Of a stretch of 64,000 nucleotides of DNA, positions 13,268-50,867 are shown piece after piece. The notes beneath the pieces are model-generated. The model worked only from the letters and a program-made list of their open reading frames with translations. It did not search any database and was not told the origin of the DNA. Position 1 is the first letter of the stretch, and each line of letters starts with the position of its first letter. The translations under genes were made by a program, and so were the position numbers. Source of the DNA: Escherichia coli. Its GTDB lineage: Bacteria > Pseudomonadota > Gammaproteobacteria > Enterobacterales > Enterobacteriaceae. The DNA is taken from the NCBI RefSeq assembly GCF_001677475.2, contig NZ_CP015229.1. The stretch is one strand, 5' to 3'.

Positions 13268-13352
13268 ATTCGGGCGGATAAGGCGTTTTTGCCTCATCCG
13301 CCGTTCTGTGCACAATGCCTGATGCGACGCTGGCGCGTCTTATCATGCCTAC
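13268..13352. repeat. REP/BIME-type palindromic repeats downstream of proX
   Basis: Two palindromic units incl. gcctgatgcgacgctggcgcgtcttatcatgcctaca. Confidence 0.6.
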
Positions 13353-22005: not shown

Positions 22006-22079
22006 GAAAGACGCGCATTTGTTATCATCATCCCTGAATTCAGAGATGAAATTTTGGCCACTCACGAGTGGCCTTTTTC
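22006..22079 (+). ncRNA. micA: MicA (SraD) small regulatory RNA
   Basis: Recognised sequence gaaagacgcgcatttgttatcatcatccctgaattcagagatgaaattttggccactcacgagtggcctttttc with terminal hairpin; between luxS and gshA on the opposite strand. Confidence 0.75.
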
Positions 22080-24917: not shown

Positions 24918-24994
24918 TGGTGCATCCGGGAGGATTCGAACCTCCGACCGCTCGGTTCGTAGCCGAGTACTCTATCCAGCTGAGCTACGGATGC
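24918..24994 (-). tRNA. argQ: tRNA-Arg (ACG), copy 1
   Basis: Reverse complement gives a 77-nt tRNA ending in CCA with recognised tRNA-Arg sequence; symbol assigned by position. Confidence 0.9.
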
Positions 24995-25096
24995 ATCGGG
25001 AAAACTTATTTTACTGCTGATATTGATACCGCTACTAAAGCCATATCAAATAAGAAAATCCATCTTAACCATCATCACTGATGATTACGGAGAATA

Positions 25097-25173
25097 TGGT
25101 GCATCCGGGAGGATTCGAACCTCCGACCGCTCGGTTCGTAGCCGAGTACTCTATCCAGCTGAGCTACGGATGC
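25097..25173 (-). tRNA. argZ: tRNA-Arg (ACG), copy 2
   Basis: Identical 77-nt repeat. Confidence 0.9.
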
Positions 25174-25235
25174 ATCGGGAAATTTATTTTACTGCTGATA
25201 TTGATACCGCTACTAAAGCCATATCAAGTAAGAGA

Positions 25236-25312
25236 TGGTGCATCCGGGAGGATTCGAACCTCCGACCGCTCGGTTCGTAGCCGAGTACTCTATCCAGCTG
25301 AGCTACGGATGC
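25236..25312 (-). tRNA. argY: tRNA-Arg (ACG), copy 3
   Basis: Identical 77-nt repeat. Confidence 0.9.
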
Positions 25313-25374
25313 ATCGGGAAACTTACTTTACTGCAGATTTTTTGATACCGCTACTAAAGCCGTATCAAGTAAGA

Positions 25375-25395
25375 GATGGTGCATCCGGGAGGATT
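25375..25395 (-). pseudogene. Truncated tRNA-Arg fragment (3'-terminal ~21 nt only)
   Basis: gatggtgcatccgggaggatt matches the 3' end of the tRNA-Arg repeat, then diverges into spacer-like sequence. Confidence 0.6.
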
Positions 25396-25511
25396 ACTCG
25401 CCTTGCGGCTCGCCCTTCGGGCCGTTGCTAAAGCAACGTTATCCTTCCTGGTGCTTGCGGCTAGTACCGCCACCTCTTCCACATCTTCATCGCTGAAGAT
25501 TACGGATAATA

Positions 25512-25588
25512 TGGTGCATCCGGGAGGATTCGAACCTCCGACCGCTCGGTTCGTAGCCGAGTACTCTATCCAGCTGAGCTACGGATGC
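25512..25588 (-). tRNA. argV: tRNA-Arg (ACG), copy 4
   Basis: Identical 77-nt repeat. Confidence 0.9.
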
Positions 25589-25591
25589 AAA

Positions 25592-25684
25592 TGGCGGTGA
25601 GGCGGGGATTCGAACCCCGGATGCAGCTTTTGACCGCATACTCCCTTAGCAGGGGAGCGCCTTCAGCCTCTCGGCCACCTCACC
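25592..25684 (-). tRNA. serV: tRNA-Ser (GCU)
   Basis: 93-nt long-variable-arm tRNA; reverse complement matches the tRNA-Ser(GCU) sequence as recalled. Confidence 0.88.
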
Positions 25685-46737: not shown

Positions 46738-49628
<2,891 letters not shown>

Positions 49629-49636
49629 GTAACATT

Positions 49637-49718
49637 GCCGGATGTGGCGTGAACGCCTTATCCGGCTTACATAGTTCGTGCGACATGTAGGCCCGATAAG
49701 CGCAGCGCATCGGGCAAT
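49637..49718. repeat. REP/BIME palindromic repeats downstream of ascB
   Basis: gccggatgtggcgtgaacgccttatccggcttaca and atgtaggcccgataagcgcagcgcatcgggcaat. Confidence 0.65.
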
Positions 49719-49741
49719 CTGGAGTTTGGCATCAGTCAAAA

Positions 49742-50161
49742 TCAAAGAAACCATTCCGGCTTAACGCCAAATCGGGCTGAAAGTGCCTTAATATGGGATA
49801 TTGTCAGGGATCGTTGCCCAGACAAAATCTGACTGACCAGGGATTTAGAGCCGATTTCGTTCTTCAAATCCGCGTAGGTCAGATTATGTTGATCAATCAG
49901 CGTACGAAGTAACGCCACGCCAACCGGCATTGCTGCAACGGCTTTGTCGAACTCTGCAAACTTTTCGTTATTGTTTTCATATTCTGCAATGCGGCTCGCC
50001 AGAAAGTCGATAAGTGGATTGGTGTCATCTTCTTCAATCAAATATTCGACCAGTTCCAGTGCTTCACGATAATCATCTTCTGAGTCACTGCCTCCCAGAA
50101 AGGGGACTGCATTGACCAGTTCTCTTGTTGCTTTAACAGCGCGTGCAGCATTAGCAGTCAT
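49742..50161 (-). CDS. HigA-like XRE-family HTH antitoxin
   Basis: 139-aa ORF; C-terminal XRE HTH (IGSKSLVSQILSGQRSLTISHIKALSARFGV) and N-terminal region resembling chromosomal HigA (YgjM) as recalled. Confidence 0.65.
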   Translation of the reverse strand: MTANAARAVKATRELVNAVPFLGGSDSEDDYREALELVEYLIEEDDTNPLIDFLASRIAEYENNNEKFAEFDKAVAAMPVGVALLRTLIDQHNLTYADLKNEIGSKSLVSQILSGQRSLTISHIKALSARFGVKPEWFL

Positions 50162-50186
50162 TCTTGGTTCTCTCTGTAGTATCGTG

Positions 50187-50288
50187 TCAGACGCCCACTT
50201 TTCTAAAATGCCAGTTTTGATCGGTATAATAAGGCATGGTCAGGAGAGGTTTCAGCGCCCGCTTTTGTGCGTATTCGCTGTCACTCAT
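50187..50288 (-). pseudogene. 33-codon ORF upstream of the HigA-like gene; possible remnant of a HigB/RelE-type toxin gene
   Basis: MSDSEYAQKRALKPLLTMPYYTDQNWHFRKVGV; stop is 25 nt upstream of the antitoxin ATG; in-frame stop 10 codons upstream of its ATG. Confidence 0.3.
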
Positions 50289-50396
50289 CGGCAGATATTC
50301 GGTAAAGCTGGTGGCCTACGCAGGAAGCACTAAGCTCAATAAAAAAGCGCACATCCCTGTCCTGATTTTCAATTCCCTGAATTCCTTAATGAAGAA

Positions 50397-50867
50397 CTAC
50401 TCTTCTTCCACCGCTAACTGCGCGAAGCCGCCATTCCCTTCCCAGCCTTCCAGTCGTTGATAAACGGTTTCTACCGCATCTTTAATCGGTTGGGTCATCG
50501 GATAGTAAAAGCCGACGATATCCGGCTGGATACCAAGGAAAATCACTTCGCCAATGTCTTCTTTTAACTGGTCGATAAGGTAATTCAACGGCATGTTATG
50601 GGTAGTCATCATAAACATCTCGGCGATGTCATCCGGGTCGATGATGCGGATCTCGCCGGGGTTTAGCCCCATATCCGTGGCGTCGACAATCAGTAACCGC
50701 GTAGGGCGCAGTTCACGGATGGCGACAATGTCGTTTTCCGGTGCGCTACCGCCGTCAATCACCACCCAATTACCTTTCGGCGCGGCGGCGCACTTTTCCG
50801 CCAGCAGCGGACCTGCGCCATCATCGCCCATCATGCTATTGCCAACACAGAGTAAAACGTCAGTCAC
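50397..50867 (-). CDS. hycI: Hydrogenase 3 maturation protease HycI
   Basis: 156-aa ORF; synteny. Confidence 0.9.
   Translation of the reverse strand: MTDVLLCVGNSMMGDDGAGPLLAEKCAAAPKGNWVVIDGGSAPENDIVAIRELRPTRLLIVDATDMGLNPGEIRIIDPDDIAEMFMMTTHNMPLNYLIDQLKEDIGEVIFLGIQPDIVGFYYPMTQPIKDAVETVYQRLEGWEGNGGFAQLAVEEE

Follow-up and report, generated by a model that had tools for sequence, protein, structure and literature searches.

An orphan YgjM-type HigA antitoxin gene beside hycI in Escherichia coli, left by deletion of its HigB toxin

The ascB-hycI spacer and its HigA protein

In the window (the whole 64-kb stretch of E. coli DNA analysed here), ascB and hycI are separated by a spacer of 768 bp. 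The ascB gene lies on the plus strand and stops at 49628, hycI lies on the minus strand, and the 3' ends of both face the spacer. Within it is an intact gene for a HigA-type antitoxin, on the same strand as hycI and accompanied by the remnants of a toxin gene (higB) and of a hypothetical gene (hyp). The features of this region are as follows.

49637..49716, no strand assigned: BIME, a pair of inverted REP hairpins lying between the stop codons of higA and ascB (REP pattern and RNA fold)
49742..50161, minus strand: higA, intact 139-aa YgjM-type HigA antitoxin gene with an ATG start (ORF list)
49748..49909, minus strand: C-terminal XRE-type helix-turn-helix of HigA, residues 85-138 (Pfam HTH_3)
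49922..50161, minus strand: N-terminal helical region of HigA, residues 1 to ~80 (5IFG_B alignment from residue 9)
50158..50190, minus strand: 3' remnant of higB, ~10 terminal codons with the stop, sharing ATGA with the start of higA (blastn, tblastn)
50190..50191, no strand assigned: deletion junction (L001 2091|3124), 1,032 bp missing relative to the full hyp-higB-higA arrangement
50191..50372, minus strand: 5' remnant of hyp, ~60 codons from the signal-peptide end of a 251-253-aa gene (tblastn)
50226..50255, minus strand: weak sigma-70-like match CTGAAA-18-TATTAT inside what is left of hyp, ~65 nt before the ATG of higA (consensus scan, 9/12)
50397..50867, minus strand, as higA: hycI, last gene of the hyc operon (ORF list, annotation of orthologous loci)

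A preliminary description of this DNA had stated that ascB and hycI are adjacent in K-12, and this is correct: in an MG1655 derivative the two are 158 bp apart, with no annotated gene between them. The REP/BIME cluster that it had placed next to higA is also present, comprising a canonical REP at 49637-49666 (no mismatches to the pattern) and a second, inverted REP hairpin at ~49689-49716. The BIME folds into two strong RNA hairpins (z=-2.5) and is likely the 3' end of transcripts derived from hycI and higA. Elsewhere in the window, the matches above the Rfam gathering threshold are naRNA4 (REP-derived), the MicA sRNA and a five-tRNA cluster (13272-13349, 22006-22077 and 24921-25684), all ordinary for the region.

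The higA product is identical in sequence (100%) to WP_000126294.1, and the same protein is annotated in loci L001, L002, L004, L006 and L007, among others fetched from other genomes. In a search of all PDB chains, it aligned to K-12 HigA (5IFG_B) with E=2.5e-35, residues 9-138 matching residues 8-136, an alignment that spans the entire two-domain protein. BLASTP against K-12 HigA/YgjM gives 46% identity over 134 residues, and Pfam places HTH_3 (PF01381) at residues 85-138 (E=7.9e-9). These matches bear out the earlier reading of the 139-codon minus-strand ORF as a protein with the two-part architecture of HigA. The K-12 YgjN-YgjM system (5IFG, 6KML, 6KMQ) has the same kind of two-domain antitoxin of 138-139 aa, helical at its N-terminus and with an XRE helix-turn-helix at its C-terminus. 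Residues 1 to ~80 of the window protein are predicted to be the homologue of the HigB-binding domain of K-12 HigA, toxin contact being read from the solved HigBA complex.

The NCBIfam model TIGR02607, "antidote_HigA", describes the shorter, Rts1/Vibrio-type HigA proteins that are partnered with PF05015 HigB toxins. No NCBIfam model scored above its cutoff against the window protein; the best relevant match was TIGR02607, at 14.4 bits against a cutoff of 47.7 (E=0.026) and in the helix-turn-helix region only. Because the protein has full-length homology to 5IFG_B/YgjM together with HTH_3, and because its TIGR02607 score is under the cutoff, it belongs to the YgjM-type family, whose antitoxins are paired with PF09907 toxins, and the Rts1/Vibrio type is excluded. 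The preliminary assignment to HigA therefore holds for the YgjM type (5IFG_B, HTH_3) and not for the family modelled by "antidote_HigA". RefSeq labels WP_000126294.1 either "helix-turn-helix domain-containing protein" or "type II toxin-antitoxin system HigA family antitoxin"; an annotation as orphan HigA-family antitoxin is preferable to that of a generic helix-turn-helix protein.

Membership in the anti-phage system PD-Lambda-2, which consists of a HigB-like component A and a component B of ~400 aa, was considered and rejected. Of the 402 positions in the PD-Lambda-2_B profile, the window HigA matches only 9-115 (E=2.4e-14), and component A is absent from the window. The PADLOC matches reflect common HigBA ancestry.

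The toxin deletion and the states of the locus

In strain CX05 (locus L001), the spacer carries three complete minus-strand genes after hycI: hyp, which encodes a hypothetical protein of 253 aa that carries a signal peptide; higB, which encodes a 103-aa HigB-family toxin; and a higA with a product identical to that of the window. The start of higA overlaps the stop of higB by 4 bp. The CX05-type toxin matches Pfam HigB_toxin (PF09907) with E=4.5e-23 and is 39% identical to K-12 HigB; it has no above-cutoff match in NCBIfam. Strains with an intact hycI-adjacent pair thus resemble K-12 YgjN-YgjM in having the toxin first, a 4-bp overlap, a PF09907 partner and an operator of 7-3-7 layout. The K-12 pair differs in being a paralogue located at fadH-rlmG, with identities to the hycI-adjacent pair of 46% (antitoxin) and 39% (toxin). 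Of 5,426 complete E. coli genomes, 1,461 carry the hyp gene (L001 2544-3305, minus strand), in alleles down to 82% nucleotide identity, and its 253-aa product has no match in Pfam, NCBIfam or PADLOC.

By blastn, the window and CX05 are collinear up to 50190 (L001 2091), and collinearity resumes at 50191 (L001 3124), such that 1,032 bp are absent from the window. Collinearity with higB-bearing loci, our test of origin, holds on both sides of this point. The deletion took the first ~93 codons of higB, the final 580 bp of hyp and, between the two genes, the intergenic region that contains the higBA promoter and operator. What was left is higA with its ribosome-binding region, ~10 terminal higB codons and ~60 hyp codons. 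The higB remnant reads LTRYYRENQE and stop, versus LTRYYRENKE and stop at the end of the intact toxin; the hyp remnant is 81% identical to residues 1-72 of the CX05 protein by tblastn (E=1e-32). When the whole 64-kb window was searched by tblastn, the cognate HigB matched only over its C-terminal 11 residues (93-103, at 50193-50161), and K-12 HigB had no match. Two plus-strand spacer ORFs, of 73 and 74 aa, were rejected as toxin candidates; they are antisense to the hyp remnant and have no tblastn match to HigB.

The window higA is the surviving antitoxin of a chromosomal K-12-type HigB-HigA module, the toxin of which was removed by a single 1,032-bp deletion. It presents the picture of an orphan type II antitoxin: an intact antitoxin ORF, no intact toxin nearby, a toxin remnant beside it and intact pairs in relatives. 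It shares with the YgjM type the full-length homology to YgjM and the C-terminal XRE/HTH_3 domain; the overlapping PF09907 HigB gene upstream and the palindromic operator in the promoter are both missing from the window. Because orthologous loci with an identical HigA carry an overlapping higB (1,092 genomes), the gene is a family member by descent that stands outside any working pair. The preliminary description had read it as an orphan antitoxin, and the lack of a partner in the window, the remnant of the deleted higB and the YgjM-type identity agree in supporting that reading. Its statement that no intact toxin lies beside higA also stands over the full 64 kb. The spacer is not, however, free of toxin sequence: the last ~10 codons of higB are retained there, fused to the hyp remnant.

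The junction sequence GTGTCAG|ACGCC recurs in six other fetched loci, one of which (L002) has a single substitution (GTGACAG). Because all fetched loci of this junction type share it, with that one exception, the window-type junction is, as judged from these sequences, one deletion event inherited by descent. The window's hyp remnant has since acquired an extra in-frame TAG at 50316-50318 (minus strand; Gln to stop, in the signal peptide) that is absent from the six other same-junction loci; decay is therefore continuing beside a conserved higA. A second toxin-less form occurs in strain C10, where hyp is intact and a deletion of ~400 bp ends 4 bp from the endpoint of the window's deletion. The C10 form is an independent loss of the toxin that again spared higA and its ribosome-binding region.

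The distribution of these states was surveyed in the 5,426 complete E. coli genomes. The higA gene is found at the hycI locus in 2,508, always as a single chromosomal copy with ascB (or its replacement) on the other side, and is absent from 2,918. The part of higB that is missing from the window is present in 1,092 genomes, which leaves, by difference, 1,416 (26%) with higA and no higB. Independently, an 821-bp spacer query from the window is matched over 80% or more of its length in 1,416 genomes, so the two routes to the orphan count agree exactly. Intact pairs at exactly this position, the survey of which had been proposed in the preliminary description, thus occur in 1,092 genomes, versus 1,416 with higA alone. 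A 191-bp probe across the window junction matches at full length in 834 genomes, including UTI89, making this the commonest toxin-less form; the C10-type form is among the remaining ~582. Other partial states exist as well: E-1246 has higB-higA but is missing hyp, and ECOD1 has hyp only.

The "empty" K-12 spacer (L003 1637-1667; window 49736-50375) joins ~6 codons from the start of hyp to ~8 from its end at a GGGATGT direct repeat. The K-12 ascB-hycI spacer is therefore itself a deletion scar of hyp, derived and not ancestral. In Ecol_745 (L010) and GPEC102 (L011) the asc operon is missing, and higA is flanked by a gene for a 145-aa hypothetical protein and then by hydN. In DA33135 (L009) and CFT073 (L012), a gene of 142-145 aa replaces ascB, and the fetched stretch ends before hydN. 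Because the ascB side is replaced in these four loci, the polymorphic region reaches past the ascB-hycI spacer. On the other side, hycI is unusually diverse over seven compared loci (4.3% pairwise, more than twice the value for adjoining higA), with alleles of 468 or 471 bp.

Operator, expression and constraint

A palindrome, GTTTACA-TAT-TGTGAAC, is conserved upstream of higB in CX05, CFT073 and E-1246. In the degenerate form GTTYACA-N3-TGTRAAC, it occurs exactly once in each of these three toxin-bearing chromosomal loci and twice in one plasmid higBA promoter. It is missing from every toxin-less locus that was fetched and, even when 2 mismatches are allowed, from the whole 64-kb window; window searches with the full palindrome, the degenerate core and the 17-nt motif, at up to 2-3 mismatches, gave no matches. 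A 61-bp probe for the CX05-type higB promoter/operator is matched in 751 genomes, once in each, and only in toxin-bearing ones. The K-12 ygjNM promoter contains GTTGCCA-N3-TGGCAAC, which shares the 7-3-7 layout but differs in its centre; the half-site is thus GTTYACA at the hycI locus and GTTGCCA in K-12, and the window has neither toxin nor operator. With the operator absent and the toxin deleted, the window HigA has therefore lost both its partner toxin and its own predicted binding site. The intact HigBA pairs of CFT073, CX05 and E-1246 (WP_000547555/WP_000547564 with WP_000126293/WP_000126294) lie at the orthologous locus, their HigA identical to that of the window or one residue different; they keep higB and the operator, whereas the window lost both in the 1,032-bp deletion.

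Its own promoter gone, higA would be transcribed by read-through from hyc, from the promoter of its truncated neighbour, or from both. These sources are candidates because the genes are on the same strand, a minus-strand scan from hycI to higA found no terminator-like site, and there is a weak promoter match. The CTGAAA-18-TATTAT match in the hyp remnant is no more than a candidate replacement promoter.

Despite these losses, the coding sequence appears to be well conserved. Among the higA genes of 11 genomes, 23 of the 25 variable sites are synonymous; the two non-synonymous changes are D72N and S122P. The seven same-junction loci differ at 19 sites, 18 of them synonymous and one not, and have no indels, which corresponds to a dN/dS of ~0.02 (binomial P ~8e-11, with 0.24 as the synonymous fraction expected under neutrality). 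In the same seven loci, pairwise diversity is 1.9% in higA, 4.3% in hycI and 4.9% in the adjoining remnant, which also has a 9-bp indel. Over the species, all but 5 of the 2,508 higA copies have at least 95% nucleotide identity to that of the window. These data support protein-level purifying selection on the orphan gene, although recombination may contribute to the synonymous excess. The higA allele of L002, a junction-type locus, is shared with C10 and differs by 1 nt from the allele of the toxin-bearing CX05. Part of the excess may thus derive from alleles recombined out of toxin-bearing strains, in which HigA is essential; because alleles are common to toxin-less and toxin-bearing backgrounds, constraint after the loss of the toxin is not cleanly isolated.

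It is conceivable that higA is a neutral relic, useless since the toxin was lost, silent or irrelevant, undecayed so far, and conserved only in what it inherited or imported from toxin-bearing lineages. The deletion of the higBA promoter and operator, the weakness of the remaining promoter-like match and the sharing of alleles just described, with the recombination that it suggests, are what such a history would produce. Further, one of the five divergent copies, in GPEC102, is a frameshifted orphan allele, and the 2,918 genomes that have no higA manage without it. Yet the 18-to-1 ratio of synonymous to non-synonymous sites in an indel-free gene, next to a remnant that has gathered more than twice the diversity, an indel and a new stop codon, speaks against uselessness, as do the rarity of divergent copies and the sparing of higA with its ribosome-binding region by two independent deletions. 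We regard the neutral relic as rather unlikely.

Possible roles of the orphan antitoxin

An orphan HigA could also have been domesticated as a transcription factor that controls unrelated chromosomal genes through its helix-turn-helix. HigA of Pseudomonas aeruginosa is reportedly a regulator of this kind, and in the present case the helix-turn-helix is intact and conserved and the protein is under purifying selection. However, the operator motif has no match in the 64-kb window with 2 mismatches allowed, and none of the 5,426 genomes has the 61-bp operator region in more than one copy, a search that short, diverged sites would escape. Moreover, D72N and S122P are the only replacements in our small sample, and the N-terminal, toxin-binding half is therefore unrelaxed, which would not be expected if DNA binding alone mattered. 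We consider domestication improbable.

The second E. coli HigBA locus has its own history of toxin loss. CFT073 and NRG857c carry an orphan higA at fadH-rlmG from which the toxin has been lost (PMC7232551); this parallels the hycI case within one species and one family, and concerns another paralogue at another locus. That study used a toxin-based search and does not mention the hycI-adjacent orphan (PMC7232551). In our survey, the K-12 higBA locus (L014 4325-5052) has matches in 4,377 genomes, 2,825 of them full-length; in about 1,550, ygjM survives with only 74 bp of ygjN, and UTI89 (L017) has neither gene.

The preliminary description had suggested that the window HigA might neutralise this paralogous chromosomal toxin, YgjN, and so serve as its spare antitoxin. 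The two pairs are of one family, and their operators are alike in layout. Because the toxins are only 39% and the antitoxins 46% identical, because the centres of the operator half-sites differ (GTTGCCA versus GTTYACA), and because UTI89, which has the same orphan junction, lacks any higBA at fadH-rlmG, cross-neutralisation of YgjN is unlikely as a general role of the window HigA on sequence grounds. Most of ygjN is, in addition, already gone from the ~1,550 genomes noted above. As an account of why higA persists, we think this one very improbable.

Closer relatives are found on plasmids. More than 500 plasmids encode a HigB and a HigA that are both 60-80% identical to those of the hycI locus (~78% for the top matches), in Klebsiella, Enterobacter, Leclercia, Citrobacter and Escherichia; at least 63 of the records are from Escherichia. 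Phage records have almost no close relatives of HigB, the sole close match (77% identity) being in a 94-kb Cronobacter phage record. The plasmid systems (in Klebsiella, Enterobacter and Leclercia; WP_079899846/WP_079899847 of pJBIWA008_2) are ~78% identical to the chromosomal pair in both proteins and nearly identical in the region of the recognition helix, and their operator is the same GTTYACA-N3-TGTRAAC as at the intact chromosomal loci, in two copies. They differ in being complete mobile modules, whereas the window retains a chromosomal antitoxin only. In the one plasmid locus that was read, Enterobacter pJBIWA008_2, the helix-turn-helix half of HigA is nearly identical to that of the window, and the operator motif is the same. 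Its higBA promoter (L015 628-682) has two tandem GTTCACA-N3-TGTAAAC copies ~38 bp apart, as against a single exact copy in the chromosomal promoters.

Because such plasmid relatives are common and use the same operator motif, immunity in trans is the most economical role for the orphan. The free HigA dimer would have neither a local operator nor a cognate toxin, and would act in trans on closely related higBA modules that arrive via plasmids or recombination. Its N-terminal domain would bind the incoming HigB toxins, and its helix-turn-helix would bind the incoming GTTYACA-N3-TGTRAAC operators. Anti-addiction is a commonly proposed role of orphan antitoxins, exemplified by the chromosomal CcdA of Erwinia chrysanthemi acting against F-plasmid CcdB (PMC7354431). 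That CcdA belongs to a different protein family but has the same proposed working as the one suggested, from sequence, for the window HigA. Insulation from non-cognate toxins is frequent among type II antitoxins (PMC7354431); neutralisation of a 78%-identical HigB by the window HigA is nonetheless plausible. Immunity to incoming HigB toxins is, in our judgement, the most plausible retained role of the orphan. The explanation as a whole, in which a deletion removed the toxin, the antitoxin remained under constraint and it now confers immunity or anti-addiction in trans, seems to us somewhat more probable than its failure.

A bolder version may be put forward tentatively. The orphan HigA present in a quarter of E. 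coli genomes might serve on its own as an immunity factor which, transcribed together with hyc or just after it, neutralises plasmid HigB, represses plasmid higBA promoters and weakens addiction, with repeated toxin loss at both HigBA loci having been selected. In this full form the proposal is doubtful.

We found no paper describing the hycI-adjacent orphan in searches for the locus or for hycI together with antitoxin. Orphan antitoxins that arose by toxin loss are already well documented, and the one at the hycI locus is a common, RefSeq-annotated further example. Toxin-based surveys of toxin-antitoxin systems will overlook it. The hycI locus offers a clean, datable case of chromosomal toxin-antitoxin decay, in which the toxin was lost first and the antitoxin was retained and conserved, and all of the intermediate states of decay are still segregating in one species at this single locus. 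If the orphan HigA does protect against plasmid HigB, the stability of some resistance plasmids in uropathogenic lineages would be affected. Were the immunity reading true, plasmid addiction would be weakened in UTI89-type lineages, and the repeated loss of the toxin would have been selected and not accidental.
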